A stretch of DNA of 64,000 bases, taken from the IMG/VR virus record IMGVR_UViG_3300035698_015449; one strand, 5' to 3'. The notes under the pieces are model-generated. The model ran no database searches. It worked only from the letters and a program-made list of their open reading frames with translations, and was not told where the DNA came from. The stretch's first letter is position 1. Each line of letters begins with the position of its first letter. This document shows positions 4,775 through 61,628 of this stretch, piece after piece. The stretch comes from an uncultured virus (IMG/VR IMGVR_UViG_3300035698_015449). Lineage: Duplodnaviria; Heunggongvirae; Uroviricota; Caudoviricetes. The position numbers were made by a program, and so were the translations under genes.

Positions 4775-5483
4775 AATACCTGTTTCCCTTTTTATGCTTA
4801 TTAAGTTCGCTCAATGCTCTGCTCACTTTGGAAGTTCCACATCCTAAGCGCCTTGCTATTTGACTCCCGTACATCCCATTTTTAAATAGCTCAATAATTT
4901 CTTCGTTTGAAACGAATACATGTGATTTTGATTTTTCTAGTTTTTCATATATTAACGGTTTCAATCTATTAAAGGTGTCTAATGCTGCATGCTCTACCGC
5001 ATGGCAATTACCACATAAAACTATACATTTATCAATTTCTTCTATAATCTCTGGCAAAGGACGAGTAAAGTTGTTTCCCGTTCTGCAAACTTCACTAAGC
5101 AAAAATCGCTTATCTCGTTCATGATGGAAATCATATATGCAATGACTTTTATCTTTTATCCCACACTTTTGGCAACAGTCAGAACCCTTCAACTTTAATA
5201 ATTGATCTTTTAAATTGTTAGTGTCTTTTGAGTAATGTCTTTTGAGATGACAGTTCCTACATAAAACTACACATTTTTTAATTTCTAGTTCAATTCTTTC
5301 CCATTTCGCATCACTAGAAAACAACTTGTATAAATTATTTTCTTTGTCTTCTTTGTGGTGAAAGGTTAAAACAACGACATTTTTTTCTCCGCAGTCCTCG
5401 CATTTACCCCCTAACTGCTCTACTGCTCTAATTTTTTTGGCCCATCTCCTACAAAAAGCATCATCTAATTTATTAAAACTCAT
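4758..5483 (-). CDS. Tandem HNH homing endonuclease with C-terminal HTH
   Basis: Two CxxC...FHH...KCxVLCxNCH units. Confidence 0.85.
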   Translation of the reverse strand: MSFNKLDDAFCRRWAKKIRAVEQLGGKCEDCGEKNVVVLTFHHKEDKENNLYKLFSSDAKWERIELEIKKCVVLCRNCHLKRHYSKDTNNLKDQLLKLKGSDCCQKCGIKDKSHCIYDFHHERDKRFLLSEVCRTGNNFTRPLPEIIEEIDKCIVLCGNCHAVEHAALDTFNRLKPLIYEKLEKSKSHVFVSNEEIIELFKNGMYGSQIARRLGCGTSKVSRALSELNKHKKGNRYYVRQL

Positions 5484-5540
5484 TTCCCCACTCCTTTTCT
5501 TATCTTATTCATAAGGAGTGGGGAAAACCCTCTAATTAAA

Positions 5541-5678
5541 TTACGACTTAAGGAATTCCCTTTTTCGTCTACGCATGTTGTTGATATAATCTCTTTTTTG
5601 TTTCAAATCACTTAGACGGAAACTATAACCTATCCATAGCTTCCGCCATACCTTCCTAAATAGCCTTTTTATATTCAC
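5541..5678 (-). CDS. Small basic hypothetical protein (45 aa; not in ORF track)
   Basis: GTG start with GGAG SD right after the ligA stop; MNIKRLFRKVWRKLWIGY... Confidence 0.45.
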   Translation of the reverse strand: MNIKRLFRKVWRKLWIGYSFRLSDLKQKRDYINNMRRRKREFLKS

Positions 5679-5685
5679 TACTCTC

Positions 5686-8306: not shown

Positions 8307-8307
8307 A

Positions 8308-11162: not shown

Positions 11163-11624
11163 ATGAAAAATATACTTATTTTACTACTGGCATTTACTCT
11201 TTCAACCTTCTCCATTGCAGATACTAATGGCTTAGATTCATTCAGTGGAGAACTTTATTTCATTAACACAAATACAATTCAAATAGCTTGGGACGCTGCT
11301 CCCGGCGCTAATGGAGACGGCTATTATGAATTCGCATCATGGTGGATTGACCCTACTTCCAATATGTACTATTCCGTTACCAATGTCGATCTAACGACAA
11401 CGAATGTATTTGTTCCCCGAATTAAAACAGGTCACTTCTCATATGGAGTCCGCTATGTAGACATCCAAACCGTAACTAATGCAGCAGTTAGTCAATCATT
11501 TACAAATGCTAGCGACTGGTGTCTTTCAAACAGTACTAACGCTTGGCAAAAAATAGCTCAAACAAATGGCCCTTGGATAGTTTATTGGAAAGTCCCACCG
11601 CCTACAGGAATTATTATCGACTAG
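11163..11624 (+). CDS. Secreted FN3/Ig-like protein with signal peptide
   Basis: MKNILILLLAFTLSTFSIA signal; IAWDAAPG...YYEF...YGVRYV. Confidence 0.6.
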   Translation: MKNILILLLAFTLSTFSIADTNGLDSFSGELYFINTNTIQIAWDAAPGANGDGYYEFASWWIDPTSNMYYSVTNVDLTTTNVFVPRIKTGHFSYGVRYVDIQTVTNAAVSQSFTNASDWCLSNSTNAWQKIAQTNGPWIVYWKVPPPTGIIID

Positions 11625-12756: not shown

Positions 12757-13749
12757 CTATATATCTTTTGTTTTCCTTCTTGCATTAAATACTTGTTCGC
12801 AATAATATACAAATAAATCTTCTGACATGTTTCGTTTCATTATGTTAATGTCTCGATGTATCCATTGGACATTATCATGAGAGTATCCCTTGTTACTATC
12901 TATTCGGTCTAAAGATGCTGTATTTATACCGTGATTTTTTGTGTAATCTGAAACCATATCTATATCTAATCCAGATAAAGCGCACTTTTTATTCTGTTGT
13001 AGAAATAAATTCCATGCATCTTCTATAGTAATAGAAACCACAAGATTTCGTTTTTTCGCCCCTCTAACTACAGTTGACCAATATCTTCCACTTAATTTCC
13101 CAACCCCTTTCCAATTAACATTGTGTCTATGGCATCCGCAAGAAGTAGTCGCTTTGTGAATTAAAGAGGATCTTATAACCTCAACAGTATTTCCACATTC
13201 ACATTGGCATAACCATTTAGCTGCGGTATTATCACTACTATTATGGACTTTTTTTATTACCGTTAATTTCCCATATTTTTCACTAACCATATCTATAAGA
13301 TTATGACCACCAGCATGCCCTTTCGGTTTCATTTGTATTTCAAACTTTAGAATCCAAGATCTAACCGCATCGTAACTGACATCATATTTTTCGGCTATGT
13401 CGTCTATTCTTTCATTGTTTAAAACGTACATATTATATAGTTCGACTTTAGTTGGTTTTATTTTTTTTTTCCACAATCCATTCCTTTTTAATGCTTCCAC
13501 AACACATGCGCAACTTACATCAAACATATCTCCTATTTTTCGAGTAGACATTCCCCTGTTTTTATATAGGTCTTTTAAAGTCTTAAGATCAGTAAATGGA
13601 GGATTCCCTTTTCTTGGAATACCGTATTTTCTTAATTTAACGATAACCGCATGTCCTTTAACTCCATACATTGCTCCTATTTCAGTAGTTGACTTGCCAT
13701 TTATTACATACAAATTATACAAATCGTCCTTATTAATTTTTAATTTCAT
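12757..13749 (-). CDS. HNH-type homing endonuclease with repeated N-terminal HTH modules
   Basis: GKLTVI...WLCQCECG...SCGC; KCALSG...SLDRIDSNKGY..DNVQWIH..IN.MK. Confidence 0.85.
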   Translation of the reverse strand: MKLKINKDDLYNLYVINGKSTTEIGAMYGVKGHAVIVKLRKYGIPRKGNPPFTDLKTLKDLYKNRGMSTRKIGDMFDVSCACVVEALKRNGLWKKKIKPTKVELYNMYVLNNERIDDIAEKYDVSYDAVRSWILKFEIQMKPKGHAGGHNLIDMVSEKYGKLTVIKKVHNSSDNTAAKWLCQCECGNTVEVIRSSLIHKATTSCGCHRHNVNWKGVGKLSGRYWSTVVRGAKKRNLVVSITIEDAWNLFLQQNKKCALSGLDIDMVSDYTKNHGINTASLDRIDSNKGYSHDNVQWIHRDINIMKRNMSEDLFVYYCEQVFNARRKTKDI

Positions 13750-13786
13750 TCTAACCTCCCGTATATGGTATTAAGTTCACGGAAAG

Positions 13787-14965
13787 TTATTCTGTTAAGT
13801 TTGCATCAAAACCTTCTTTTAAAAATATATCCATTATAGACTCATACAACGCATTAACTTTTCCTCTATCAACTTCGTTAGGAAGCACAGATTTACTATA
13901 TGTTTCATATAATAGTTCAGTTCTATGGTTAACCTCTTTCATGATTTCATCGTAAGAGAACTCCCCATTACGAACTCTCATCAAATATTCTCTCTCATCA
14001 CCATCAAACCGAACAATTGGTTCCCCAAACTTCAGCATATTTTCCCCAGACATCAATAATCTTAATGAATGCATAATATTCTTGCAATCGTAATCTATCA
14101 ATCCCTGTTCTTGTGATAAAAATCTATTTGGGTTTCTATTTTGAACCCAATCCCAATATGAGTGCCAATCCTTTAGAGCCTTATCGTACTCGTTCTTGTC
14201 GTAGATAAGCAATCCCTTAATCTTATCCCACTCGTCTTCCTTAGGGATTGATTCGCATACAAGCATATCGTCGCCCCTGAATACACCCTTGGCAGCATCA
14301 CCATAATGATACAGCCTATATTGATTATGTGCATGTTCTAAAGAAGCAACATGACATTTTGACAAATCAATATTAGTATCCTTTAGGGGAACGGGTCGGA
14401 AAGGATACAACCCATTAAAAGTCCACCCATTCCCTCCACGTGGTATATCTCCCGTGATGGTATGCTTTATATTAAGATTCTTCAATAGCATGACCCTGCA
14501 AAAGTCTTCCTTAACGGGCATCTCTTTGGGACAAGGGTTATGTACCTTTTTATTAGCTCCTTTCGCCTTTTTAATTTGGGCAATCGCATATTGAGCATGA
14601 GAATGATAAGCCTGTTTTGTAATAAATAAGCCTCTATTTTCAAATAAAATATCCAAAATTTGGTGGTTAAATGTTCTTATACAGTCTTCAGGCATCCACA
14701 ACAATTCTATAAAATTAGGATTTGCTTTTGACAATAATTCAAACGCCCGATAAAGACTATAAAACACTATGTCATTTTTGTCGTCATTTATTTGACTTGT
14801 TTGAGGTGTAACAGGAGGATTCAAACTAACATATTCCTTTGGCGAAACCCAATAGAATCCTCTTATATCCGTATCAGAATTTTTATTGTGTAGATTATAG
14901 GCTCTACTGCCAACAACTGTTTCGTAAATAATTAATCCGCTTTTTTCTAGTTGTTTTAAATTCAT
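13787..14965 (-). CDS. Predicted nucleotidyltransferase (DNA pol beta superfamily)
   Basis: VVGSRAYNL...SDTDIRG, ANPNFIELL, YDCKNIMHSLRLL; start moved to 14965. Confidence 0.8.
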   Translation of the reverse strand: MNLKQLEKSGLIIYETVVGSRAYNLHNKNSDTDIRGFYWVSPKEYVSLNPPVTPQTSQINDDKNDIVFYSLYRAFELLSKANPNFIELLWMPEDCIRTFNHQILDILFENRGLFITKQAYHSHAQYAIAQIKKAKGANKKVHNPCPKEMPVKEDFCRVMLLKNLNIKHTITGDIPRGGNGWTFNGLYPFRPVPLKDTNIDLSKCHVASLEHAHNQYRLYHYGDAAKGVFRGDDMLVCESIPKEDEWDKIKGLLIYDKNEYDKALKDWHSYWDWVQNRNPNRFLSQEQGLIDYDCKNIMHSLRLLMSGENMLKFGEPIVRFDGDEREYLMRVRNGEFSYDEIMKEVNHRTELLYETYSKSVLPNEVDRGKVNALYESIMDIFLKEGFDANLTE

Positions 14966-21197: not shown

Positions 21198-21394
21198 ATC
21201 TTACTCTCCATTTCTTCTCTCAACGGACACCAAAAATAAGCGCACCATCTGCAAACTGAATCGGGCGTTTTACCTATAGCCTTTAGTTCCTCTTTCCATC
21301 CATCATGCCAACAATACTCTTCTCCCTTCCAAAAAGATCCTGAAAAATGCTCACAAGATTCTTTGAGCGATTCCCATTGCTCTTCGGATATCAT
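21194..21394 (-). CDS. Small Cys-rich hypothetical protein
   Basis: Coupled ORF. Confidence 0.5.
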   Translation of the reverse strand: MISEEQWESLKESCEHFSGSFWKGEEYCWHDGWKEELKAIGKTPDSVCRWCAYFWCPLREEMESKI

Positions 21395-21993
21395 ATTCTA
21401 CTCTCTTCTTTTGCTCCCGATCCTATATCAATGAGCTTCGCTTTCTTTCGAAATGTATTTAAGTCTACTGCCCCTGAATAAGACATAGAAGAACGAATGC
21501 AGTCTTTAGCTTTCCTAAGTAAGAACTTCACCTTCCCTTTGAATGGAACGATCTTAATAACGCCTTCTACAAATGAATGGTCTCTGCCGTTTTCGACTTT
21601 TCGTTCTCCGCTTGCAGACCCGCCATAGACTTTGTAGAACTCTTCCTTGTCGTTCTGATACACATGTCCCGGCGTTTCAGATGTACCTGCAATAAATGAA
21701 CCAACCATAACTGCATCGGCAAATTTAAGGGCTTTTGCAATGTCACCTTTGTATTTTATTCCGCCGTCAGCAATAATAGAAAGAAAGGGACATTGATGTC
21801 TGATATCTCGCAATGCCTTTAACTGAGGGACTCCAACTCCAGTGTTCTTCCTAGTTTCACAAACAGAGTTATGTACCGCTATATTATCCCCTACCGTATA
21901 AGAATGATCATCTTCTACGTGAATATCGTATACTTCACCATCAAATTCTAATTCTTCAATCGTTGCTATTTCTTTCAATTGGTACTTTTTCAT
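21391..21993 (-). CDS. guaB: IMP dehydrogenase/GMP reductase C-terminal part, preceded by a 42-aa split-intein C-half
   Basis: MKKYQLKEI...VYDIHVEDDHSY...VHN|SVCETR.NTGVGVPQ, IIADGGI, AVMVGS, FVEGV; start 21993 with AGGGAG SD. Confidence 0.92.
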   Translation of the reverse strand: MKKYQLKEIATIEELEFDGEVYDIHVEDDHSYTVGDNIAVHNSVCETRKNTGVGVPQLKALRDIRHQCPFLSIIADGGIKYKGDIAKALKFADAVMVGSFIAGTSETPGHVYQNDKEEFYKVYGGSASGERKVENGRDHSFVEGVIKIVPFKGKVKFLLRKAKDCIRSSMSYSGAVDLNTFRKKAKLIDIGSGAKEESRI

Positions 21994-22055
21994 TACATTC
22001 TCCCTATCATAATACAATACAGATTAACTTAACCAATATTGTGAGTCCCTTCTAT

Positions 22056-26502: not shown

Positions 26503-26566
26503 AGTATAGTATTCCAACCCTATTATACACTTTCCTTGATAGATTTTTTGAAACCAACTAAAAAAA

Positions 26567-26591
26567 AGGAATATCTAGATATATCTAGAAT
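26567..26591 (+). promoter_or_regulatory. Representative sigmaH-like promoter AGGA-N17-GAAT containing the palindrome TCTAGATATATCTAGA
   Basis: One of 12 similar sites listed in the findings. Confidence 0.65.
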
Positions 26592-26599
26592 AAATTTAT

Positions 26600-26758
26600 A
26601 TGAAAAAGAAAAGATTAGAGTTTAATGTAATTCTGAGCAAAGAAGATAGAGAGATAGTTGACACATTAAAAATATATGGAATTAATATTTCTGCGGCTTT
26701 CCGTATCTTTATACGCTCTCATCTTGAAAAAATACAAGAGGTACACAATGCAAAATAA
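26600..26758 (+). CDS. Small ribbon-helix-helix-like protein (52 aa; not in ORF track)
   Basis: MKKKRLEFNVILSKEDREIVDTLKIYGINISAAFRIFIRSHLEKIQ: strand-helix-G-x-N-x-S-helix pattern; ATG 8 nt after GAAT. Confidence 0.6.
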   Translation: MKKKRLEFNVILSKEDREIVDTLKIYGINISAAFRIFIRSHLEKIQEVHNAK

Positions 26759-27467
26759 AATGTGTTCAAAATGCAAAGATCCTAAGCCATCTTCTGATTA
26801 CATTAAAAACAAATCGACCAAAGACGGCTTAGGATGCTATTGTCATGAATGTCGTGTAGAATACAACAAAAATCACCGACGAGAGAACTATCAAAAAATT
26901 AGATACTCAGAAAAACTTTATTATGAAAAACATAAAAAGGAATGCTTAGAAGGACAAAAAGATTATCGCCAACGCAATAAGGGAAAGGTGACGGAGAACA
27001 AAAAAACTTATTATTCTAACAACAAAATCAAAATAAAAAACAAAGTCAAGGAATGGAAATCTAAAAATGCAACACGCACTAGTGTGTATATGAAAAAATA
27101 TAAACAAGACAATAAACATAAGTTAAATGAGAAAAGACGCAATAGGCTTCAAGCCGATCCAGAATACAAGCTTTTACACACCCTTAGGGGAAGGCTTCAT
27201 ACCGCTATAAATAAACAGTCTGCCTCAAAAATGAATAGAACATTAGATCTAATAGGATGCTCAACAATTGAATGTAAAAAACATATAGAATCTTTATGGA
27301 CAAAAGGTATGACATGGGAAAATCACGGTGTAAAAGGTTGGCATATCGACCATATACAACCTTGTTCATCTTTCGACTTGACCAAAGAATCAGAACAAAG
27401 AAAATGCTTTAATTACAAAAACTTACAGCCATTATGGTGGCAAGACAATCTATCAAAAGGGGGGTAA
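26748..27467 (+). CDS. HNH-like homing endonuclease (WHIDH type)
   Basis: KMCSKCK...CHEC, basic helical repeats, MTWENHG..GWHIDHIQPC...FNYKNLQPLW; start moved to 26748 (GAGG SD). Confidence 0.8.
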   Translation: MQNKMCSKCKDPKPSSDYIKNKSTKDGLGCYCHECRVEYNKNHRRENYQKIRYSEKLYYEKHKKECLEGQKDYRQRNKGKVTENKKTYYSNNKIKIKNKVKEWKSKNATRTSVYMKKYKQDNKHKLNEKRRNRLQADPEYKLLHTLRGRLHTAINKQSASKMNRTLDLIGCSTIECKKHIESLWTKGMTWENHGVKGWHIDHIQPCSSFDLTKESEQRKCFNYKNLQPLWWQDNLSKGG

Positions 27468-31499: not shown

Positions 31500-32393
31500 T
31501 TAGAGGATGAACAAAGGTATATCTTCTAATTTTCCGCATTCTTTCAGCTTTAGTGCCTTATGTCTAATTCTCACTAAGGCATTATCTACAGACTTCGTTT
31601 GGTGTCGCTTCTTGAGTCTTTTTGACAAATCTTTTGATATTTCAGTATATGATGAGCTTGTCAAATACTCTTGCAATACTTCTTGTTCAAATGACGATAA
31701 CGTTCTACAAAGATTGCCTAGCGTAACTTTATAGGCTTCTTTTACTTCGGTTTGCTTATCCACTGGGTCTGACCCATCAGGAATAATGTTTGCAAATGTG
31801 TTATTCGAATCTTCATCTCTTGGAGATGGGCTACTATCTAACGATATGGCTTGATTAATGGATTGGTCTTTCAATCTAGTTTTAGAAGCATTAAGAATTG
31901 TAATCAAATGTCGTCTAATACACATCTTGGCAAAGTTTAGAAAACTCATCCCTCTTCCACGTCTAAACCCGGGGATTGCTTTAAATCGCAAAGCTATCAA
32001 TGCCTCTTGATAAATGTCAACTGTCTGCAACCCCTTGATATATGGGAACTGCTTCAGAGCTACATTGATCAAGAATCCGTGCATATAAAGATGAATCATA
32101 TCAAACAAAAGCTGATTCTCTATATGGTCTTCAGGATATCTCCTAATATGTATCGCCAATTTATCTAACTTAGTCTGAACCTGCTTGGGTGTTCCAATTA
32201 ACGGTTCTTGGACTTGTGGCAATCTGAATAGAATCTCTTCTACCGCAGAAGACTTAGTGACCTTTTCTTCAACTTCTTCAACTTCTTCAACTTCGACCTC
32301 CACTTTTTTCGGGGGTCTACCTCTCCTTTTTGTTTGACCTTTATCGCTCTTCGCCGTGTTATTACCTGCGCTATCCGATTTCCTCCTAGACAT
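31500..32393 (-). CDS. SigH-like RNA polymerase sigma factor
   Basis: DIYQEALIAL, SFLNFAKMCIRRHLITIL, ISLDS, LSSFEQEVL..YL...SY.EI, KSVDNALVRIRHK (region 4.2 resembles Firmicute sigmaH). Confidence 0.85.
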   Translation of the reverse strand: MSRRKSDSAGNNTAKSDKGQTKRRGRPPKKVEVEVEEVEEVEEKVTKSSAVEEILFRLPQVQEPLIGTPKQVQTKLDKLAIHIRRYPEDHIENQLLFDMIHLYMHGFLINVALKQFPYIKGLQTVDIYQEALIALRFKAIPGFRRGRGMSFLNFAKMCIRRHLITILNASKTRLKDQSINQAISLDSSPSPRDEDSNNTFANIIPDGSDPVDKQTEVKEAYKVTLGNLCRTLSSFEQEVLQEYLTSSSYTEISKDLSKRLKKRHQTKSVDNALVRIRHKALKLKECGKLEDIPLFIL

Positions 32394-34953: not shown

Positions 34954-35832
34954 TTAGTTTGATTCCATTTTGTATTTCTTTTCCTTAACATTAAAATATA
35001 CTCCTTTGTTCAATAATAATATAGATTTCTGTTGCAAAGAGTGATGCAGTTTCGTGTGGTTGCTTTTTGTGGTTAAAAATAAATTATCCAAACTATTATC
35101 ACAACTATTGCCATTAATGTGATGTACGCATTCGTTCTGATACAATAGCCTTCCCATAGCCTTCTCAACTATTAGTACGTGTCTCTTTTTCCATCTAGTT
35201 TTCCATTCCCCATTTTGTTTGAAACTAAAACATATTGCTTCCATTTTTCTAGATCTAACGGTCTTAATATAGATTCTTTGACTATAAATACAATCTTCGG
35301 GAGACAAGAATAGCGTTTTTGTAGAAACCTTTTTCCCGAAGTCATATGTTGATAGCGTTGGGTAGAAATTCAATTCTCCATCATGTAACAATTCATATCC
35401 ACATAACTCTAAAGAATTATGCAGTTTCCCATGCTCATTACGACTTGAACAAACAAATAAATTATCTATATTGTTATTTAGTTTATTCAGATCTATGTGA
35501 TGTACTAATTCCCCCTTCTTTAACAACCTACCTAACTGCTTTTCTGCAACAAAAATATGTTCTAGATCTCTTCTTCCGTTTACAGTTATTCGCTTATAAC
35601 CACCATTTGTTATGCCGTGTTTCCAATGACCATGGTTTTCACCACATGGTATAGATCGGTATTTACAAGAATTAGCGCAATGACAGCAAAGATCTATAGA
35701 TCTTCCTCTAACCTTCCTCCCCATTTTTATAGTTGCAATAGATGCAGTGCCTTCTTCCCCGCATTCATCACAAATTCTTATAATTACTTCTGCGCATTTA
35801 AGACCTTCAATCGTTTTTAAATTTTTTATCAT
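34954..35832 (-). CDS. Double HNH homing endonuclease
   Basis: EH..VAEKQLGR.L...ELVHHID.NK.NN.IDNL and HV..VEKAMGR...VHHING...DN.LDNL; start moved to 35832. Confidence 0.88.
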   Translation of the reverse strand: MIKNLKTIEGLKCAEVIIRICDECGEEGTASIATIKMGRKVRGRSIDLCCHCANSCKYRSIPCGENHGHWKHGITNGGYKRITVNGRRDLEHIFVAEKQLGRLLKKGELVHHIDLNKLNNNIDNLFVCSSRNEHGKLHNSLELCGYELLHDGELNFYPTLSTYDFGKKVSTKTLFLSPEDCIYSQRIYIKTVRSRKMEAICFSFKQNGEWKTRWKKRHVLIVEKAMGRLLYQNECVHHINGNSCDNSLDNLFLTTKSNHTKLHHSLQQKSILLLNKGVYFNVKEKKYKMESN

Positions 35833-35898
35833 ATTGTATCTCCATTTTGGATCTATATCTATTAATTCCAAAATGAAAATATAAATTCCTCTTTAAAT

Positions 35899-37914: not shown

Positions 37915-38003
37915 AAATTCTCCTCAAATGTTACGGAGTTATTATACAACTTCATTTGAGGATTAGAGGAAACAATGTAAATATTGTGGAATTATTAACC
38001 ATC

Positions 38004-42860: not shown

Positions 42861-44026
42861 TCAAATTCTTTTTGAATTGACATACTTAATTTCCCTTTTA
42901 CCCAATTTTCTTTGTATAAACAAAAAATTGGACTTCAATTCATTCTCTACATAATGCTTTTTAATGACTATTCCCCTTAAGTAATTATACCATCTTTTAA
43001 AGTTTTTTTGAAAACTAGTAACTTCAACATATGTATCACTATCCTCTAAGTAAAAATCAAACCTGTAATTACCTAATTTATTGTTTCCTTGACTATATCG
43101 ACCATCGTACTTGAAATCAATACCTTGTTCTTGATACTTTAAATAATAATATGCTTCCACTAACGATAAAAGCTTGGTTCCATCGACAAGAATAATTGAA
43201 TTAGAACACGAAGGACAATTATTGTACCCTCTAATTCTATCATATACCGTTGAATCCCATAAACAACCACACTTCTTACATTTCCATTGTATTTTGAACT
43301 TACTGCCATTAGTAATTTTGCTCAAATTAACATGAGGATTGTACGCATAATTAAACTCATCACAAATTTCTGGGTCTGTATTTTTGACAGAATTCTCAAT
43401 GGGAATGATACGTGGCGAATTGGGACATCTTGATCCATTTCTGAAACGACTACTAGGGGAAGATTCCCATGTAAATTTACAAATATTACATTTCCAATGC
43501 ACTTTACGATTACTCTGCTGGCATAGTTCTTTAGGATCTATTACGTTTTTTGTCTTATCCCAAATACCCATGAGGTCTTTATGATTTGCCACACAATTTG
43601 TATCGTTTGGACTAAGATTGCGTTGCCTAATTTTTTCGTTTTTACATTTCGGGCAACCGTGTCCAATGCTTCTATTTTTAATTTGAGCAAGCCATATATG
43701 ACCACACTTCTTACATTTCCATGAAACCCTCTTGGCACTTCCCGGGGTTAAATCAAAAATAGTAAGAGGTTGATTTAATTCAACAACCCATTCTTTTGAT
43801 AATTCTTCATTTAGAATCCCTATAGAACGACACTTTAGACATTTGCCTAGCCCTTGACACCTTTGATAGGTTCTAGCTTCCCATTTATTGCCGCATATAC
43901 TACAAATCCACCCCGGTTTTTATAATCGCTAGTTAATATTTCCTCTGGGATATAGGGATTGTTGTACTCATAATTCCACTCCTTTGATAACTTTATCGAA
44001 TATTCAGACAATTTTTTAACTTTCAT
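42861..44026 (-). pseudogene. Zn-ribbon-repeat endonuclease (DUF4379-like repeats plus PD-(D/E)XK-like domain), frameshifted at an A5 run (43917-43921)
   Basis: ATG 44026 with GGGAGG SD; four W.C..C...W...R....C units; YRFDFYL...YVEV; one extra A restores a single ORF of about 388 aa. Confidence 0.75.
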
Positions 44027-44045
44027 AAATAGCCTCCCGTGAAAT

Positions 44046-44846
44046 TCATTTAATTTCAGGTAATCTATTCTTAAAAGCGTTCTTTAATTCCTTTTTTAAA
44101 GTTATAATCTGATCTTCCATAGTTTCTCTATTGGCTGCAAGAATGAACGATGTTAGTTGAACTAGAAAATCCTCACCTAGAACCTTCAAAAGTAACCAAT
44201 CATGGAAAGTCCTGTAGTTCTCTTTCTGACGAACCTGTACATCACTAAAATCTCCAGTGGTTTTATCAAGACTATCAATTTGATCAAACAGACCTTGGAT
44301 AACCTCTGAAGTCAACTCATTTGTCTCATCTACCCTCTTGACGAACTTACACTGTTTGTTTAAAGGAAGATCTTCTCTCTTCAGACCATGCTCTTCATAA
44401 GCCTTGGCAAACTTCAGGACTCTTGCCTCATACTCTTCCTCGGGCCATAATCCATAAAGCCTACAGTTCAATGGACGGTCTTCGTAAATCGTGCATCGAT
44501 CCTTGCCATCTAGAAACATACAAGGCTTAACGAGGCTCTCTTTACCCCATTTGTTATATTCGCATCTAAAGAAGTATTCTAAACTCGTACAGATGATGTC
44601 TAGAATTTCTTCGTGTTCCTTATCATGCCAAACGGTTGTGGCGATCTGTACGAACTCGCTGTAATTGATTTGCGGCATTGCGACTTTGCAGCATTCACAG
44701 ACATGGTTACAAGTTGTTTCTAGGCTTACCGTATCATGATAGACACTTTGCAATACGCTCTTCAAATCTGTTCTTTTCTTTTGGGCATGAACCGCAGCCT
44801 TACGACTGTATTTGCGCTTCTTCTTCTTTTGTACTTTTTTGCTCAT
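44046..44846 (-). CDS. YkgJ-like Cys-cluster (Zn/Fe-chelating) protein
   Basis: CNHVCECC...PCMFLD...CTIYEDRPLNCRLY. Confidence 0.75.
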   Translation of the reverse strand: MSKKVQKKKKRKYSRKAAVHAQKKRTDLKSVLQSVYHDTVSLETTCNHVCECCKVAMPQINYSEFVQIATTVWHDKEHEEILDIICTSLEYFFRCEYNKWGKESLVKPCMFLDGKDRCTIYEDRPLNCRLYGLWPEEEYEARVLKFAKAYEEHGLKREDLPLNKQCKFVKRVDETNELTSEVIQGLFDQIDSLDKTTGDFSDVQVRQKENYRTFHDWLLLKVLGEDFLVQLTSFILAANRETMEDQIITLKKELKNAFKNRLPEIK

Positions 44847-50213: not shown

Positions 50214-51116
50214 TTAGATTGCGCCTTCGAGCTTACGCCTGTAGTTATCTTTGTTTTTCCTGAGTTCACGAAGAGAGCGCATAATGTTGTCAGTCTCTTT
50301 CGTCTTCTTCAGTTCGATTTCATATCTTAGGCGGCTAGTCCCTTCAACAGTATAGCCCAAAAGTTTAAATTCACCTTCAGCGATATCCTTTTGCCTCAAC
50401 AAATCTGAAACCATCTTTGTACATTTTCTTTTTCCGAAACGCTTTGCTTGATCTTGCGACAGCTTGACCGTACCCTTGCGAGTCTTATATTCTCTAATCA
50501 AAGAGACCAAACTATTACCATCTCCAATCTTTGACAAGAACTCCCTAAACTTAGGCTCATTCCGTGACAAGATATTTAACGTTTCGTTCATATAAGTGTT
50601 TGTCAGAACATAGTCCGTTTCAGTAGGGGAGCCTGATGGAATAACATCTTTCAAAGTCACTTCTGATCCGTCGCTAGTATTGTACGGATAGTCTAAAGAC
50701 AGAACCATTCCAATTGCAGGGCCTTCGTACTCTTCAGGAAGGCGCTTTTTAGCATGCTTACTGTTCTTGATATTTTTAAGTCTATTCAACAAGAATGTGA
50801 ATAAGCAAGTATTGAATGCGCCTCTTTTCCTATCATACTTCTCTGCCGCTTTGACAAAAACAACTGACAAGTCTTCAAAGAGATCGTCAACGCTAAATGT
50901 CAAGCCGGGATAGTAGTGTTTGTATGCCCAACTTCTCAATGTCGGTATTCTATTTTTGTATACTTCTTCCAAAACCTTTAGATCGCCTGTCTTCTGAAAC
51001 GACTCAACAGCAGCATTTTCTTGCTCCCTATCAATACAAACGGTTGTGTTTTCGTATTTTGGTTTTTCGTGCATCCATTTTTGGTCTACATTGGGATTCT
51101 TACTCTTACTCGGCAT
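50214..51116 (-). CDS. Sigma70-family sigma factor-like protein (region 2)
   Basis: DDLFEDLSVVFVKAAEKYD.KRGAFNT.L....NRL, LSLD...EVTLKDVI. Confidence 0.7.
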   Translation of the reverse strand: MPSKSKNPNVDQKWMHEKPKYENTTVCIDREQENAAVESFQKTGDLKVLEEVYKNRIPTLRSWAYKHYYPGLTFSVDDLFEDLSVVFVKAAEKYDRKRGAFNTCLFTFLLNRLKNIKNSKHAKKRLPEEYEGPAIGMVLSLDYPYNTSDGSEVTLKDVIPSGSPTETDYVLTNTYMNETLNILSRNEPKFREFLSKIGDGNSLVSLIREYKTRKGTVKLSQDQAKRFGKRKCTKMVSDLLRQKDIAEGEFKLLGYTVEGTSRLRYEIELKKTKETDNIMRSLRELRKNKDNYRRKLEGAI

Positions 51117-54780: not shown

Positions 54781-55605
54781 CTAGAAGGTTCTCTCTTCCG
54801 CTTCTAGGCTTTTACCTTCATCTAATGGTTCTTTCGTTGTCTCTTCTACAGAGGGTTTCTCTACAGGCTCCCCAATTTCATGCGGACTAGGTGAACTGAA
54901 CGAGTCAGATAATTGAGCATCATTGAAATTAAAGTCAGGCAATGCACCACGACCTATGTCAAATAGCTTCAACTGAGACTGAATGATCGTAATCTGTCTA
55001 GATATCGCATTGCTTTGACTGTCTAGATTCTTCAGAACATGATCACAAACATTATGCAAAGACTCAATCTGAGCTAAATCAATTGTAAAATCGCTCATAC
55101 GAAATGCACAATCAGCCTTTCTTTTGTCAGCGCTAGCTCCTTCTGCGAACTTACCCCACGCTTCTGACAAAATGTTCACCGCCCTCTTCTTGAGCGTATG
55201 GCATCTAAGCACATCTTGGAATATCTCAGAGAGTCTGTCCTTGTTCCCTTGAATCATTTGCAACTTGAGATTAATCAACTGCAATGTGGGAGTTGGATCT
55301 GACTTTACATTTAACTGAGCAACTTCCGTATGCACTTGTTCGTAATCAAGCTTGGGGAGGTTCTCGTAAAGTATCAAAAACCTATTCGCAACCTGTTGAA
55401 ACTCAATGGGATACCCATCTCCAACCAACATCGGCAAAGGACTCGGTGCTTCTAATTCAGCTTCAACTTCCTCAGGCTCAGTTGCGTTTTCATCAACTTC
55501 GTCCTCAGAACTAGTGCTACTCATTTCGCCTCCATCTCCGATGTCTTCTCCAAGTGCGCCAATGTCCTCAAAGAAGTCATCACCTAATATATCTTCTTTA
55601 CCCAT
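54781..55605 (-). CDS. Helical protein, possible recombination mediator (UvsY-like)
   Basis: Coiled-coil core; located beside ssb and recA. Confidence 0.4.
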   Translation of the reverse strand: MGKEDILGDDFFEDIGALGEDIGDGGEMSSTSSEDEVDENATEPEEVEAELEAPSPLPMLVGDGYPIEFQQVANRFLILYENLPKLDYEQVHTEVAQLNVKSDPTPTLQLINLKLQMIQGNKDRLSEIFQDVLRCHTLKKRAVNILSEAWGKFAEGASADKRKADCAFRMSDFTIDLAQIESLHNVCDHVLKNLDSQSNAISRQITIIQSQLKLFDIGRGALPDFNFNDAQLSDSFSSPSPHEIGEPVEKPSVEETTKEPLDEGKSLEAEERTF

Positions 55606-55622
55606 GATTTACCTCGTAAGGC

Positions 55623-55958
55623 TTATTCAGATTCGTATACGATGAGATAGTCATTGCCACTTACGAATGTAGTCAATTTGGGGATCAAATCAAACTTCAT
55701 TTCGCCAATGTCATCTCTTTGGATCGTAACCGACTCACTCGCTTCGACTTCACCATTACGAAACTGATCAATCGTTGGCGTTCCAGCATGACCCGAAATA
55801 TCTACGTTAATCTGAATGGGCTTACCAAGCTGTCTATCGTTACACTCTACTCCGAAAGCGCCGATGGCATTCAAACTAGCCACCTGAGTTTCAAATGCCT
55901 CTTCAAACATTGTGATTAACTCTTCGCTACTTACTCGACTCAATTCCATTTTTTTCAT
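55623..55958 (-). CDS. Hypothetical protein
   Basis: AGGAG SD. Confidence 0.6.
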   Translation of the reverse strand: MKKMELSRVSSEELITMFEEAFETQVASLNAIGAFGVECNDRQLGKPIQINVDISGHAGTPTIDQFRNGEVEASESVTIQRDDIGEMKFDLIPKLTTFVSGNDYLIVYESE

Positions 55959-55969
55959 ACTTCTTCTCC

Positions 55970-56608
55970 TTAGACATCACCAAAAAGGTCGTCATCTTCA
56001 TCATCAAAGATGCTGTCTAATTCGGCCTTTTTAACATCGGGTTCGGTCTTTTCGACCTTTTCCTCGACTTTAGTTTCTACTGCTTCAGCTTTCTCAGCCT
56101 CTTCAGTCACATCATCAGCATTTTCAAGCCTTTCTGACTTCGGCATTTCAGCCTCTTCAAAAAGGTCTTCCTCTTCCTCAGCAGGTACAACAGGAGCAGG
56201 TACAACAGGAGCCTCTACTTTGGTCTCCACAACTACTTCTGCCAAATTCTTAGCGTTAGTGTCTTTGTTGTCTTTTTGCTCTGCCGCATTACGAAGGTTC
56301 TCGTTAGCTGCCTTGTTCGCTATATTGGGAACAGGGCCATTCTCAAGCCATTCGGGGATTGCTTTTTGAATCGCTTCTTCAATTTCCTGAGCCGACTCAA
56401 CACCCTTGCCAAGCTTCTCAGGAATGGCTTTCATGCTGCGAATCATGCTTGCAAGTAAGTCATCTCTTAAAGAGTCTTCCTTTGTGATCAGATCTTCTTG
56501 ACCTTCATATTCAATTTGTTCTTCAGCGTACTTTGTCAACTCAATATGCTGATAGTTACCAACATTAATACGTAAACTAATACACTCTGCTATTTTTCGG
56601 TTTGCCAT
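55970..56608 (-). CDS. Hypothetical protein with acidic tail (DDEDDDLFGDV)
   Basis: AGGAG SD, TGTATAAT promoter. Confidence 0.65.
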   Translation of the reverse strand: MANRKIAECISLRINVGNYQHIELTKYAEEQIEYEGQEDLITKEDSLRDDLLASMIRSMKAIPEKLGKGVESAQEIEEAIQKAIPEWLENGPVPNIANKAANENLRNAAEQKDNKDTNAKNLAEVVVETKVEAPVVPAPVVPAEEEEDLFEEAEMPKSERLENADDVTEEAEKAEAVETKVEEKVEKTEPDVKKAELDSIFDDEDDDLFGDV

Positions 56609-56663
56609 ATCTCGCTCCTGTTTTTTATTGTCAATCTCTGGAGACATTATACATTAAACTCCG

Positions 56664-57374
56664 TTAGATTTTAATTCCTTTCCCGCCTAGTTTGGAAAAG
56701 ATATTGTTTCCACCGTACTGCTCCATTCTCTCGTCTTGTTTCTTCTTCTGTTTTTTCTCTTTGTCAACAAGAGCCTTCACTGTAGTATATTTATCCAACA
56801 AAGTCTCTTTACCAATCTTCCAACTCTCCTGCATACAATCAGCTTCAACCAAAGATTTAAACACTTTGCTATGAACCTTTCTTGTGTCAACTGTATGTAA
56901 GAAGTCTCTCAAGTCCGCAAACGGTTGATTATCTACAATACTCTGAACAGCTTTTTCTCCTACGCCACCAATAATCGTCAAAGGTGTCCTTATTCCATCC
57001 CTCTCTTTGCCCGATTTATCATCAACGAATGTAGCTATTTTATATTTAGTACCGCTTTTGTTAATACATGGCCCGTTAATAATAAGCCCCATACGTCTTG
57101 ATTCGCTCTGATAGGACTCAAGCTTAATCCCCTTATCGCTGTTATTGATCTCAGACGACAAAAGATTACACATGTACTCTAAAGGATAGTAAACTTTGAG
57201 CCAAGCCGTTTGATAAGCCAACATAGCATAAGCTGCGCTGTGAGAGTTTTTCGTGTAAAGCCCTCTGCCGCAAGGACTTATGATTTTGTAATTATGTTGC
57301 TCGCCTGCCATAGTCACGTTATATGTTGTTTGCTTCCCTAATGACCTAATAGATTTTACTCTGCACTTTTTCAT
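56664..57374 (-). CDS. dnaE: DNA polymerase III alpha, piece 3 of 3: 43-aa IntC plus C-extein (HhH region)
   Basis: MKKCRVKSIRSLGKQTTYNV...YTKN|SHSAAYAMLAYQTAWLKVYYP, IGGVGEKAV. Confidence 0.92.
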   Translation of the reverse strand: MKKCRVKSIRSLGKQTTYNVTMAGEQHNYKIISPCGRGLYTKNSHSAAYAMLAYQTAWLKVYYPLEYMCNLLSSEINNSDKGIKLESYQSESRRMGLIINGPCINKSGTKYKIATFVDDKSGKERDGIRTPLTIIGGVGEKAVQSIVDNQPFADLRDFLHTVDTRKVHSKVFKSLVEADCMQESWKIGKETLLDKYTTVKALVDKEKKQKKKQDERMEQYGGNNIFSKLGGKGIKI

Positions 57375-58461
57375 ATTTTCTCCTTAAATAAAAATCGTTC
57401 TTATCATTATACATCCAACAAAACGCTTTGCAAATCTGTTTCTCCCCTCCAAGAGTTCTTAGATTATAGATATATCCTGTTTTTGTTTTTTGTCCCGTTA
57501 CCGACCAAACAAACTGGTTTATGCTTGTCAAGTCAGTCAAGAAATCTTTACTAGCTGAAGTAAGAGATAGCCAAGGATATCCATTCTTCTTTAAACCAAC
57601 CGTTCCATCCCCATCAATAAGTCCCCTGAAAAATGAACTTAAAAACTCATCAGGAACACATCCATTATACCTCAATATCTTCGTCTTACGCTTTACTACT
57701 CCTAACTTTTTTAAATCTTCTGCAATCTTTCGGTTATGAACGGTTAAACGTATCATATCTTTAGCGTTTGAAAATCCAACTTTAGTTCTTTTATGCGAAC
57801 AGTCTATCTTTTGAACAGGATGCGTTTTAGATGCGCCTATAAGATCCCCTATCTTTTCAAGTATATATCCGTCTTCTTCTGTTAGTTGTATTTCAAATCC
57901 ATTATAGTCTTTGATAATATTACCATCTGTCATTATCAGACCAAGAACGTATGCTTTTTCGTGACTATTAATTTTCTCAAAAAATGATTCATCGTAATGA
58001 GTTTGTATCTTTGGTTCTCTTCGTTCAATTCCATATTTATCTAGGATTTGATATACGGTTTCCTTCCTCTTGTATCCTATTGAATCAACTATCTGCTTTC
58101 CTGTTCTACCTTTTTCATAAAGTTGTATTACTTTTTGTTCTAATTGATCTGACCGCTTACTATTCCATGCTACTCGTTTCGCTTGCTTTACTTTGTATTT
58201 CTTCCTTATGCGGCAAAGGCCATAGTAATTCACGCCCGTTTGTTCTGAGACTTTGCATAAAGAAAGCCCCTTTGTATACGAGATATGGCACAGCATTTGA
58301 TAATACCGCTCTCTTACCGCTTGCCAATTGTTTTCCTGAATCACTCTCCGTATTACTCGCTCCGTTAAATCCGTTTGGCGTTCTATCTCCTTCATTTCCT
58401 TTTTTTGGAAGAACAATTTGCGGATCTTCTTTTGTAATTGTTTCGGTATCGGTTGTTTCAT
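57346..58461 (-). CDS. Free-standing LAGLIDADG homing endonuclease with N-terminal HTH modules
   Basis: KAYVLGLIMTDG and FFRGLIDGDG; GGGAGG SD. Confidence 0.9.
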   Translation of the reverse strand: MKQPIPKQLQKKIRKLFFQKKEMKEIERQTDLTERVIRRVIQENNWQAVRERYYQMLCHISYTKGLSLCKVSEQTGVNYYGLCRIRKKYKVKQAKRVAWNSKRSDQLEQKVIQLYEKGRTGKQIVDSIGYKRKETVYQILDKYGIERREPKIQTHYDESFFEKINSHEKAYVLGLIMTDGNIIKDYNGFEIQLTEEDGYILEKIGDLIGASKTHPVQKIDCSHKRTKVGFSNAKDMIRLTVHNRKIAEDLKKLGVVKRKTKILRYNGCVPDEFLSSFFRGLIDGDGTVGLKKNGYPWLSLTSASKDFLTDLTSINQFVWSVTGQKTKTGYIYNLRTLGGEKQICKAFCWMYNDKNDFYLRRKYEKVQSKIY

Positions 58462-58930
58462 TTTCGGCCTCCCATATTTTATGCTGCTGCTTATGGGATA
58501 CTTCTGTAAGATACTGCGAATCTCCTTCTAATTTTATGATTTTATTTTTTAGTTCATTATTACGATTACCTATCATATACCCCACCAATACAGAAAAAAT
58601 ACATGTAATAAAAACAGATATGATTTTTATTTTTATTTCACTCCATATTACATCATCCATGTGAAGTTTTTTGTTATCTAGATTGCATTGTTGAATTTCT
58701 ATATTGTCTCCCTCTATACTCCCATGATTCGCATACGTTTGAGCATTCTCACTTACACTTTCAGCGCCATATGACACAGCAGTAGATAAATCTTTTTCTC
58801 GATCAATAAATGGTTCGGTAGGGTAATCAATAAATTTTACGAAAAGGAATTTTAATGGGTTGTTGAACCTTGTCCCAAATTTATCTTTAGGATAACTAAT
58901 ATATTTCATCAAGAACGGCTTAATCTTCAT
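58160..58930 (-). CDS. Possible single-TM passenger protein inside the dnaE break; 3' end overlaps the LAGLIDADG gene
   Basis: ATG overlaps the end of dnaE piece 2; hydrophobic IISVFITCIFSVLVGYMIG. Confidence 0.4.
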   Translation of the reverse strand: MKIKPFLMKYISYPKDKFGTRFNNPLKFLFVKFIDYPTEPFIDREKDLSTAVSYGAESVSENAQTYANHGSIEGDNIEIQQCNLDNKKLHMDDVIWSEIKIKIISVFITCIFSVLVGYMIGNRNNELKNKIIKLEGDSQYLTEVSHKQQHKIWEAENETTDTETITKEDPQIVLPKKGNEGDRTPNGFNGASNTESDSGKQLASGKRAVLSNAVPYLVYKGAFFMQSLRTNGRELLWPLPHKEEIQSKASETSSME

Positions 58931-60611
58931 ACAAAATCTCCAATTCTTCATGCACAATGTCCTGCAAAGTATGTGCTTCCCCGTCAGAACAAATAAACTT
59001 ATGATCCATTGTGCATTTTATCACAACACCATTATCAAGTTGAACTTCAAATAGCTCTCTCTCGCCAACTTCAAAAACATCTACCACGACATCTTCTACG
59101 ATTTCCCCATCTTTAAATGACTTAAGAATTATCTCAGGTGTTTCAACTTCCTCACCCGCTCCAAATTCCTTCCATCCTTGATAATTAAAGAACCATTTCT
59201 CTAAGTCTTCTAATCTATAGACTTTCCCATCCTTTTCGTTTAGGACTTCGGTATCTCCAGAGAGACATTTGTTGAATCCATACCCACCGAAGTATTCGAT
59301 CTGTTCAAATATCGCTTTTGCAGTTCTTTCGTCAATATCACATTCGGCCTTACAACCCTCAATGAACAGAGTGTCAAGCTTTTCTTTCTTGATCAACTCA
59401 GGTTTCTTCTTACCCACAACCTTTCTCAACCAGTCTGCCTGACCTAGAGTAAATCCTGCGAGCTTCTGTACAACCTTCATGATGTTCTCTTGGAAAACCA
59501 TGATCCCGTAAGTCTCATCCAAAACCTCTCCCATCTTAGGATGCAAATATTCGATTTTCTTACGGCCATGCTTGTAGTCACTGTAAAGGTCGTGAACTCC
59601 TGCACCTAATGGGCCGGGACGATACAAAGCATTACATACAACCAAATCATTGAACGTATCAACATGGATGTTCTTTAACAATTTAGAGATGCCATGAGCT
59701 TCAAACTGGAATATACCCCTATTGTCCATATTTTTGTATTTACCATTAAATAAATCAAATACCTTAGGATCATCAGGCTCAAGTACATCAACGTCTATAT
59801 ACGTCCCGTAACGGCTCTTAATCATCTGAACAGTATCCTCTATTACCGTCAGAGTCTTCAAAGCCAACATATCGAACTTGAGCAAACCAAGATCATCAAC
59901 CTCTTCCATGACAAACTGAGAGCAGATAGCGCCCTTAGACTCCCTCAAAGGAATGTGGTTTACAACAGGCTCTTTACAAATAATGATGCCAGCAGGATGC
60001 ACTCCCGCAGATGATACAGTGTTCTCAACATGTCTTGTCGTATCGAGTAACTTAGGGTTCTTTAACATCTCTCTTCTGAATGACTCATCCTCTTTAAGTG
60101 CTTGTTCAATGGTCATGCCGGGACTATTGGGGATTTGTTTGGCAATGAAGTCCGCCATATCCAAACTCCTTTTTGTCATCTCAACTTTTTTATCAGGGTT
60201 ACGCTTCTTAGCTGCCTGATAAGTCTCCCAATCATTACCAATATCCAACGCTTTAGCCGCATATCTAACCGCAGCCCTTGCTTTGAATTTGTTGTACGTC
60301 CCAATTTTGCAACAATACCCCTCTCCATACTTACGAATGATGTAATCAAAGATCTCATCTCTACGATAGTAATCAAAGTCAATATCTACATCAGGGGGAC
60401 TTACACGCTCAGGGTTGATGAATCTTTCAAAAAGTAAACCGTACTTAATTGGGTCAAGTTTCGTAATACCTAGAACATACAAACACAAACTGCCTGCTCC
60501 AGAATTATGAACTGACAACCCATCTATATTGTATGCGCTCAAATCCTTAACGGTAAGATCATGAACTTTTCCTTCATACTTAGTCTTTTTGATGCTTTTT
60601 ATTTTAGCCAT
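58920..60611 (-). CDS. dnaE: DNA polymerase III alpha, piece 2 of 3: 36-aa IntC, 412-aa catalytic extein, 115-aa IntN
   Basis: MAKIKSIKK...VHN|SGAGSL...FERFINPERVSPPDVDIDF...GLLKFDMLAL...GYGFNK|CLSGDT...CTMDHKF. Confidence 0.95.
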   Translation of the reverse strand: MAKIKSIKKTKYEGKVHDLTVKDLSAYNIDGLSVHNSGAGSLCLYVLGITKLDPIKYGLLFERFINPERVSPPDVDIDFDYYRRDEIFDYIIRKYGEGYCCKIGTYNKFKARAAVRYAAKALDIGNDWETYQAAKKRNPDKKVEMTKRSLDMADFIAKQIPNSPGMTIEQALKEDESFRREMLKNPKLLDTTRHVENTVSSAGVHPAGIIICKEPVVNHIPLRESKGAICSQFVMEEVDDLGLLKFDMLALKTLTVIEDTVQMIKSRYGTYIDVDVLEPDDPKVFDLFNGKYKNMDNRGIFQFEAHGISKLLKNIHVDTFNDLVVCNALYRPGPLGAGVHDLYSDYKHGRKKIEYLHPKMGEVLDETYGIMVFQENIMKVVQKLAGFTLGQADWLRKVVGKKKPELIKKEKLDTLFIEGCKAECDIDERTAKAIFEQIEYFGGYGFNKCLSGDTEVLNEKDGKVYRLEDLEKWFFNYQGWKEFGAGEEVETPEIILKSFKDGEIVEDVVVDVFEVGERELFEVQLDNGVVIKCTMDHKFICSDGEAHTLQDIVHEELEILYED

Positions 60612-61543
60612 GCCTTAATCCTCTTCTTTATTGCGTCAGTTTTTTCATTATTGTAAAATGTTATTTCAGAATAATATCTTTTATAAAATGGTTTAAGATA
60701 AGTTTCTCTTTTTACAAATATACCTAAATCAAACAAATCCTGAAATCCATATACAACATACATTATACCAAACTCCTTTCTTGCTGCTTTAAATTTTTCA
60801 TGGAAGTTGTTATACTCCTTCGACCCTTTAATTTCAACGATTCTTTTTTTATCATTGCTATAGGTAACTATGAAATCAGGATAATACTGCCGTTTTTTAC
60901 CTTTATCGTCTTTATAAGCAATACTCCCCTTATATCTTTCAATCTTTTTTATACTCTTAGAGTCCCAACAAAAACATAGAAAATACAATTCCCAACTACT
61001 ATCAAATCTGATACCTCGTATTGTACCGCTTATAAAAGATTTTGAACATCTTTTTTCTGCATACATCGGATCGGATTTCATTAATTTCAGTTGGGCATCT
61101 CTTTGCTTTTTTAAAACCTCCGGTCTATTTTGCGCTATCAATTGAGCTTTTGAATTACTATCCTTCCATTTGTCAGTATTTGTAGCAAACTTTAGGGAAC
61201 ATTTTTTACAGATAGGTTTGGTTCCACAAATCTTCCTTTTTTGCATAGCTAAAATCTGCATAACACTATCTTTGCCACATTCTTGACATTTAAATTTTAC
61301 TTTCTTTTTAGTTTTTAAAGAATTTATACAAGGTTGTACTAATTTATAATCCCAATATTCATCATTTAGCTTATCCTGCAACTCAACCGGATAGTAATCA
61401 ACTCCGTATTTTCCGCCCCTACTATATTTTTTGTAGCATTTCGGACAAATTGGCTCTGAAGTTTTTTCCCTTCTTCTTTTTAAACATCCTCTTTGAATTT
61501 TAAAATCATTACCACAATCCTGACATTTCATTCTAACACTCAT
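60599..61543 (-). CDS. Free-standing Zn-finger plus TnsA-like PD-(D/E)XK endonuclease
   Basis: CxxC pairs; FDSSWE...YYPDFIVTY...IVEIKG. Confidence 0.78.
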   Translation of the reverse strand: MSVRMKCQDCGNDFKIQRGCLKRRREKTSEPICPKCYKKYSRGGKYGVDYYPVELQDKLNDEYWDYKLVQPCINSLKTKKKVKFKCQECGKDSVMQILAMQKRKICGTKPICKKCSLKFATNTDKWKDSNSKAQLIAQNRPEVLKKQRDAQLKLMKSDPMYAEKRCSKSFISGTIRGIRFDSSWELYFLCFCWDSKSIKKIERYKGSIAYKDDKGKKRQYYPDFIVTYSNDKKRIVEIKGSKEYNNFHEKFKAARKEFGIMYVVYGFQDLFDLGIFVKRETYLKPFYKRYYSEITFYNNEKTDAIKKRIKAWLK

Positions 61544-61628
61544 AAAATAACCTCCTTAACTTTATTAGGTTATATTCTTGATGAATGCCAAAACCTCCTC
61601 CTTTAAACTCCAACTCGTACAACCAACC

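Follow-up and report, generated by a model that had tools for sequence, protein, structure and literature searches.

Predicted Shine–Dalgarno-covering hairpins paired with SigH-type promoter motifs at endonuclease genes of an uncultured large phage

The window analyzed here comprises the first 64 kb of the 74,311-bp uncultured virus record IMGVR_UViG_3300035698_015449 and covers a large phage's replication arm, including six endonuclease-like genes and their leaders. Nearly all genes lie on the minus strand, and the replication genes encode a ligase, RecJ, the clamp and its loader, topA, SbcCD, a primase, RecA and a DnaE split into three pieces that bear inteins. The dnaE locus (56664–63026, minus strand) is divided into three genes whose junctions carry intein halves, and one endonuclease gene lies in each gap; the 3′ ends of these two endonuclease genes overlap the next dnaE piece at 60599–60611 and 57346–57374. 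Genomes of relatives, found via the capsid gene and a phage sigma factor described below, reach 236–548 kb, and public runs with near-identical DNA are all labelled salt lake metagenome, with no RNA run among those listed. A genome scan for the host gave SigH-like genes of cellular origin alone, at 28–42% identity. Membership in the moraphages was rejected, as these carry a family B polymerase (PMC12619734) and thus belong to a lineage other than the present clade.

An original prediction from the bare sequence held that the six endonuclease genes share a hairpin hiding the ribosome-binding site and an overlapping SigH-like promoter that together form a late-only switch. Domain searches agreed that all six downstream genes are nuclease-like: three are of HNH type, and the others are a LAGLIDADG gene, a TnsA-like gene and a frameshifted DUF4379 zinc-finger gene (Table 1). 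Judged by sequence, they are putative homing endonuclease genes, with nuclease domains in free-standing, sporadically present open reading frames (ORFs). The HNH_3 gene was taken to start at 35832, and a TTG at 35871 was discarded. The frame change in the DUF4379 gene may reflect decay, an assembly error or recoding; the four public DNA runs leave 43836–44336, and with it the frameshift site, uncovered.

Table 1. Leaders, endonuclease genes and related features. SD, Shine–Dalgarno sequence. Opening costs (kcal/mol) are for the long and the short RNA; z compares each leader with its shuffles.
Feature	Coordinates	Strand	Details	SD opening, long / short	z
Leader 1	5483..5532	-	-35 GAGG 5532-5529; -10 GAAT 5510-5507, in loop; N18	21.5 / 0.3	-4.15
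Leader 1 arms	5526-5513 (5′) / 5496-5483 (3′)	-	3′ arm covers SD and the A of ATG		
Two-HNH-type-repeat endonuclease gene	4758..5483	-	PHROG HNH 5e-31; downstream of DNA ligase		
Leader 2	13749..13815	-	-35 AAGG 13815-13812; -10 GAAT 13792-13789; N19; arms 13789-13779 / 13762-13752	10.9 / 2.7	-2.67
HTH-repeat HNH endonuclease gene	12757..13749	-	PHROG HNH 3e-24		
Leader 3	35832..35891	-	-35 GAGG 35891-35888; -10 GAAT 35868-35865; N19	10.4 / 3.6	-3.28
Leader 3 arms	35879-35867 (5′) / 35851-35839 (3′)	-			
HNH_3 endonuclease gene	34954..35832	-	Pfam HNH_3 2e-21; between topA and a tail-tube-family gene		
Leader 4	44026..44093	-	-35 AAGG 44093-44090; -10 GAAT 44070-44067; N19; long imperfect stem ~44070-44028	15.1 / 6.0 (3.3 with start 2 nt further down)	-4.48
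DUF4379 zinc-finger endonuclease gene	42861..44026	-	Frame change at A-run near 43920		
Leader 5	58461..58527	-	-35 AAGG 58527-58524; -10 GAAG 58504-58501; N19; arms 58498-58492 / 58476-58470	7.6 / 2.8	-0.31
LAGLIDADG endonuclease gene	57346..58461	-	Pfam LAGLIDADG_3 1e-11; between middle and C-terminal split-intein dnaE pieces		
Leader 6	61543..61600	-	-35 GAGG 61600-61597; -10 GAAT 61577-61574; N19; arms 61573-61567 / 61553-61547	9.0 / 3.9	-2.46
TnsA-like (PD-(D/E)xK) endonuclease gene	60599..61543	-	Pfam Tn7_TnsA-like_N 4e-9; between N-terminal and middle dnaE pieces		
LAGLIDADG-like genes past the window (three)	starts 65005, 66652, 71527		LAGLIDADG motif seen by eye; phmmer match to the LAGLIDADG gene of the window		
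Phage SigH-like sigma	31500..32393	-	Likely reader of the motif		
Contrast case	26566..27467	+	N18 motif ending 12 nt before 52-aa ORF 26600-26758, then endonuclease VII-like gene 26748-27467		
~60-nt element copies	L289:14698-14790(-), L326:7615-7707, L190:2110-2202, L233:11104-11196, L189:12056-12148		Distant relatives; at least three endonuclease families		

The five hairpins originally given by arm coordinates pair as predicted: 14/14 Watson–Crick pairs at leader 1, 11 bp with two G–U pairs at leader 2, 13 bp with two G–U pairs at leader 3, and 7 bp each at leaders 5 and 6, with loops of 13–16 nt. At leader 6, further pairing extends over the start codon. The long imperfect hairpin at 44028–44069 also folds (−17.8 kcal/mol), and the −10 boxes stand relative to the 5′ arms as originally described. 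When each 72-nt leader was compared with 200 dinucleotide shuffles, five of the six folded better than their shuffles, leader 5 being the exception. The 5′ arms have no common sequence except complementarity to the SD region of their own gene; by this comparison of arms, separate origins would be a better fit than a single portable cassette. A search of viral contigs for homologs of the genes starting at 58461 and 61543 yielded no close relatives, and an Rfam search of the window gave zero matches.

The promoter motif held up in its boxes, although its spacing had been given one nucleotide too short. With GAA placed 25–60 nt before the start codon, the literal AGG-N17/18-GAA pattern fits only two of the six sites (at 5483, and another upstream site at 35832), whereas AGG-N18/19-GAA fits all six, five with N19 and one with N18; the −10 box of leader 5 is GAAG, unlike GAAT/GAAA. 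N19 was the only enriched spacing at endonuclease genes of the contig (8/9), and every other spacing from 14 to 23 gave 0–1. The T4 late element TATAAATA has six matches in the window, which is the chance level, and none within the leaders. Clostridioides difficile SigH promoters have the same boxes, AGG-N18/19-GAA(T/A), and the sequences listed in Table 3 of PMC7438776 end 11–13 nt past the G; we took the last listed base as the start site, which is an assumption, as the underlining is lost in the text form of that table. When the spacing between the G of GAA and ATG was tallied over 5187 distinct upstream regions, it peaked at 12, 13 and 14 nt (25, 13 and 5 genes, against 0, 0 and 2 for control spacings), as expected from leaderless transcripts. 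We infer a start of the short RNA some 12 nt past this G.

To set these leaders against ordinary genes, 98 genes were called automatically on the 74-kb contig, one wrong start being replaced by the real start at 44026, and the cost of opening the SD was calculated over the folding ensemble for positions −16 to −3. The set included three LAGLIDADG-like genes from beyond the window; they are independent of the original prediction, but their leaders were viewed before the pattern was fixed and so were not blind. The motif, with its GAA 25–60 nt upstream of the start, was present at 9/9 co-oriented endonuclease genes and 3/89 other genes (Fisher p 1e-10). Median opening cost was 10.4 kcal/mol for the endonuclease genes and 3.6 kcal/mol for the others (p 6e-6), with the same outcome against 43 strong-SD genes. 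Motif and stem occurred jointly at 9/9 endonuclease genes, including all three out-of-window genes with the N19 motif, and at 0/89 others. The folding comparison proposed with the original prediction came out as anticipated, the long RNA being closed (7.1–21.5 kcal/mol for 9/9) and the short RNA open: a start 12 nt after the G lowered the cost to 0.1–6.0 kcal/mol, and to 0.1–1.8 kcal/mol for the three out-of-window genes.

The original prediction had also pointed to equally stable stems at ordinary genes as evidence that would count against it. Three such genes match most endonuclease stems, at 24920 (14.4 kcal/mol), topA at 37914 (11.4 kcal/mol) and 19232 (10.3 kcal/mol), and none has the motif; the stem alone is therefore unspecific, and it is the pairing of stem and motif that is specific. 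Neither motif nor stem was found at the HNH genes at 11624 and 27470, which served as non-mobile controls because their orthologs recur in relatives. A seventh endonuclease gene of the window, which had escaped the original prediction, is the plus-strand endonuclease VII-like gene. It has no SD stem (5.4 kcal/mol), is opposed to the replication operons and faces no read-through from them.

The six genes are co-oriented with replication genes, units whose gene content suggests early timing. A simple terminator scan of the stretch leading from the closest TG(n)TATAAT site upstream, 2.1–6.5 kb away, to each of these genes predicted none, and a second check of 55000–64000 agreed. Read-through from replication-type promoters is thus plausible. 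The dnaE pieces downstream of the endonuclease genes have open SDs of their own (1.2 and 3.0 kcal/mol).

The pattern was repeated among relatives, whose endonuclease genes were chosen by Pfam and phmmer rather than by motif, with the exception of L144:13871, which its motif had brought to notice. With a slightly relaxed pattern, motif and stem were combined at 19/59 endonuclease genes (L144:13871 not being one of these 19) and 30/2629 others (odds ratio 41), and with the strict pattern at 15/59 and 21/2629. Among motif-bearing genes, the median opening cost was 9.8 kcal/mol for endonucleases (n = 24) and 4.0 kcal/mol for others (n = 141). The combination was absent from all 15 TnpB genes. Some virion genes carry it, for example at L016:4140 and L016:16451, indicating that the switch is not confined to nucleases, as for T4 soc and e.

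We then considered when the promoter is used and which sigma reads it. Around the capsid and terminase genes, AAGG-N19-GAAW precedes 57 and the N18 form 26 of 1116 genes, with 5–14 for other spacings. Upstream of the capsid gene, two co-oriented gene families carry the motif in 17/56 and 8/64 cases, and in relative G002 it stands before the terminase and lysozyme genes as well as one tail and one virion gene. Among replication orthologs, 3/324 carry the motif and 136/324 carry TG(n)TATAAT; the sigma gene itself has the motif in 0/43 cases. The position of the motif before head, tail and terminase genes and not replication genes, together with a SigH-like sigma in the clade, makes late timing likely, and AGG-N18/19-GAA is on this sequence evidence likely a late promoter.

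The SigH likeness claimed originally was borne out for the motif by the C. difficile promoter table as given in PMC7438776 and for the 31500–32393 sigma by profile matches. The top NCBIfam matches of this protein are SigH models, far under the equivalog cut-off (82.9 vs 294.8 bits, TIGR02859). A profile of 33 phage sigmas had sigma-H 3mzy_A as its sole Protein Data Bank match (residues 3–156 of 164, E 1.5e-14), the alignment spanning the promoter-reading regions 2 and 4. The sigma was found in 6/25 capsid-selected records and 5/7 near-complete ones, and it is a conserved core gene within the replication block; no GenBank phage matches it over its full length. Spacing preference also differs between sub-clades: G000–G006 and G011 prefer N19, whereas G012, whose sigma is more distant, favors N18 (endonuclease genes 10 vs 2, other genes 12 vs 4), and G016 and G025 have no clear peak. 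These differences and the link to morphogenesis genes favor a phage-encoded reader and a late class.

Based on these data, we propose a two-state leader switch with a likely late promoter that would be read by the phage's own SigH-like sigma, and assign this model a probability of about 0.68. Read-through RNA from the upstream replication operon would hold both arms and fold over the SD, so that the neighbors, including the split dnaE pieces, are translated from replication messages without the nuclease. As the SigH-like sigma accumulates, short transcripts from the overlapping motif would lack the 5′ arm and be translated. The purpose may be to keep the nucleases off while replication messages are translated and to turn them on once progeny DNA is available for homing.

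Several observations weigh against this model. Just 1/73 capsid genes are preceded by the motif, and the G002 portal gene carries TGTATAAT instead. The motif count for structural genes (15/61) comes mostly from one tail-tube family, with the match often within the topA coding sequence; it may be a codon coincidence and was given little weight. A second sigma-like protein is encoded at 50214–51116. The stem cut-off of 7 kcal/mol was chosen post hoc, the lowest endonuclease value being 7.1, and 14/89 ordinary genes exceed it. Leader 5 is the weakest, and 74/200 shuffles fold as well as its stem, which is thus at chance level. Among relatives, 40/59 endonuclease genes lack the combination, and a more distant set (mostly G012, G016 and G025) has it at 2/28 endonuclease genes and 10/1297 others. 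The absence of the combination from all 32 endonuclease genes adjoining the capsid gene (median cost 3.0 kcal/mol) speaks for the model, but these are few families, mostly at one site, and so do not amount to 32 independent cases. Some of the missing combinations may be due to automatic start calls and degenerate −10 boxes; among the distant 28, several pair AAGG and a stem with a −10 box that deviates, and others have a small upstream ORF.

The same hairpin switch could instead be driven by host SigH, or by a middle promoter, in which case the nucleases would follow the state of the host or replication and would not be strictly late. The close resemblance of the motif to the host SigH promoters tabulated in PMC7438776, the spoVS-like gene of the phage, the Clostridia among the closest cellular relatives of its sigma and the lack of a motif at the capsid gene all suit such a reader, and some host-like phage sigma factors are dispensable in lytic growth according to the accessible text of bioRxiv 10.1101/2021.11.12.468384. 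Nevertheless, we regard it as unlikely: the phage sigma is a core gene of the replication block, the motif tracks morphogenesis and avoids replication genes, and close relatives prefer N19, whereas the C. difficile entries examined from that table are mostly N18 and the preference varies by sub-clade.

Alternatively, the stems might act as constitutive dampers or protein-binding operators, the nucleases being always low and the promoter overlap incidental. The T4 I-TevI operator does cover its late promoter (PMC2988022, accessible text), and topA has a repeat around a TGTATAAT site though no co-oriented read-through arrives there. Yet the G–U pairs in the stems suit RNA rather than a DNA palindrome, the SD always lies under one arm, a transcript from the predicted start would in 9/9 cases lose the 5′ arm wholly or for the most part, and the capsid-adjoining and plus-strand endonuclease genes have no stems, so we consider this explanation quite improbable. 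Chance would operate if purine-rich SDs readily find pyrimidine partners and AGG...GAA is common on an A-rich strand; AGG-Nn-GAA indeed occurs 26–52 times per spacing on the endonuclease strand, and the ordinary genes above the cut-off and the leader 5 stem are what it would produce. It does not account for the exclusive enrichment of N19, for the fit of the three out-of-window genes or for the recurrence in relatives, and it is largely refuted except for the 58461 stem, leaving a very small probability for the pattern as a whole.

Extending the two-state switch to the clade, a large uncultured group of 250–550 kb phages would have made a SigH-family sigma its late sigma, and at least four unrelated nuclease families would have independently rebuilt a T4-style gate, retuned it to N19 or N18 according to the resident sigma and dropped it in late operons and on the opposite strand. 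We see this wider account as an even bet. If true, delayed translation of homing endonucleases is a general need of large lytic phages, met here once more but by transcription machinery unrelated to that of T4, and the gate is found at those sites at which early expression of the nuclease by read-through would threaten. It would also give a first handle on the transcription program of an uncultured huge-phage clade. The SigH-like sigma with its defined two-box promoter would be the most useful new element, and it can be tested without the phage.

The original prediction had noted that T4 endonucleases use the same logic with T4 late promoters, and this is in print: T4 I-TevI, I-TevII, I-TevIII and segB and Aeh1 mobE have an SD-hiding hairpin on early or middle read-through RNA (Edgell, Gibb and Belfort 2010, PMC2988022). 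In the accessible text of that review, such control is common to GIY-YIG and HNH nucleases and to the non-nuclease late genes soc, e, 39, 25 and 26. The present leaders resemble the I-TevI type in that the gene's own promoter is placed, by prediction, where it would give rise to a transcript unable to form the stem. They differ in that the T4 promoter is the single-box late TATAAATA and that found here is a two-box SigH type; the T4 cases were mapped by experiment, whereas the present leaders are known from prediction, and this phage, with its DnaE polymerase and SigH-like sigma, is not T4-like. In fractured genes, whose split-intein halves flank a free-standing endonuclease gene, hairpins were reported in 15/16 endonuclease leaders, with GIY-YIG and Vsr-like nucleases and DnaE and IMPDH among the hosts, and the late element of T4/Aeh1, TATAAATA, lies in ten of them (Dassa et al. 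2009, PMC2677866, accessible text). Both there and here the endonuclease gene runs at its 3′ end into the next gene piece; here, by contrast, the promoter is AGG-N19-GAA and dnaE is split in three, with a different endonuclease in each of the two gaps. Compared with Firmicutes SigH promoters, which share the AGG-N18/19-GAA(T/A) boxes (PMC7438776, table), those described here lie on a phage genome, prefer N19 and stand before virion and nuclease genes.

The novelty of the switch was thus overstated in the original prediction: both the logic and its spread over unrelated nucleases, including split-intein dnaE, were already published for T4-like phages (PMC2988022, PMC2677866), and what is new is the SigH-type promoter and the clade. 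A literature search, with subscription journals and supplements mostly outside it, found no SigH-type version and no description of the clade's promoters.

The TGTATAAT promoters of replication genes (273 sites) have only helically phased A/T tracts upstream, and their interpretation as plain housekeeping promoters was rejected because there is no −35 consensus in these sites. The second sigma-like protein is a candidate reader. In the topA leader (37914–37975, minus strand), a 10-bp stem lies over the SD with a TGTATAAT promoter in the loop, which repeats the layout of the endonuclease leaders with the other promoter class, although the upstream gene is divergent. At three endonuclease genes of relatives (L014:16057, L020:1892 and L130:13108), a stem is likewise paired with TGTATAAT. 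Another TGTATAAT promoter, at 57406–57434 (minus strand), lies within the LAGLIDADG gene at its 3′ end. It serves the C-terminal piece of dnaE, which would lock this endonuclease in place.

Other leader types were seen in distant relatives. At L203:10994, L214:11013, L218:5398, L223:11228 and L338:6745, AAGG is followed 14–17 nt on by CGAT or CGAC, possibly a third promoter class. A structured element of about 60 nt, with 73% mean column identity and an outer stem ending in a U run, stands directly before endonuclease genes (Table 1) and looks like a portable leader or antisense cassette. Elsewhere a small basic ORF overlaps the start of the endonuclease gene, as in the window at 26566–27467 (plus strand) and at L062:8546, L069:7168, L138:3827, L292:2025, L292:4842 and L313:18249. 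By eye it is CcdA/ribbon-helix-helix-like, and it is likely an autorepressor; a PHROG search with the small ORF upstream of the 26748 gene gave no match, and the 52-aa ORF of the window is predicted to be leaderless from its SigH-type motif. According to the accessible text of PMC12619734, moraphages pair a CcdA/HicB-like small gene with a homing endonuclease, a likeness to the small ORF directly before the endonuclease gene at 26600–27467 and in several relatives.

Many capsid genes of the clade (L175–L253) are preceded by a hairpin that ends a few bases before the SD, without the promoter motif, and is possibly a stabilizing or processing element. An ORF at 58160–58930 (minus strand), located between the LAGLIDADG gene and the middle piece of dnaE, has an SD of its own and is predicted to encode a hydrophobic segment. 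It crosses leader 5 and overlaps the LAGLIDADG gene by 300 nt; it has no PHROG match. IMPDH (21391–22937) is intein-split like dnaE, with no endonuclease between its halves. At the start of the window (276–987, plus strand), an IS200-type transposase is followed by a remnant of an HNH-associated domain.

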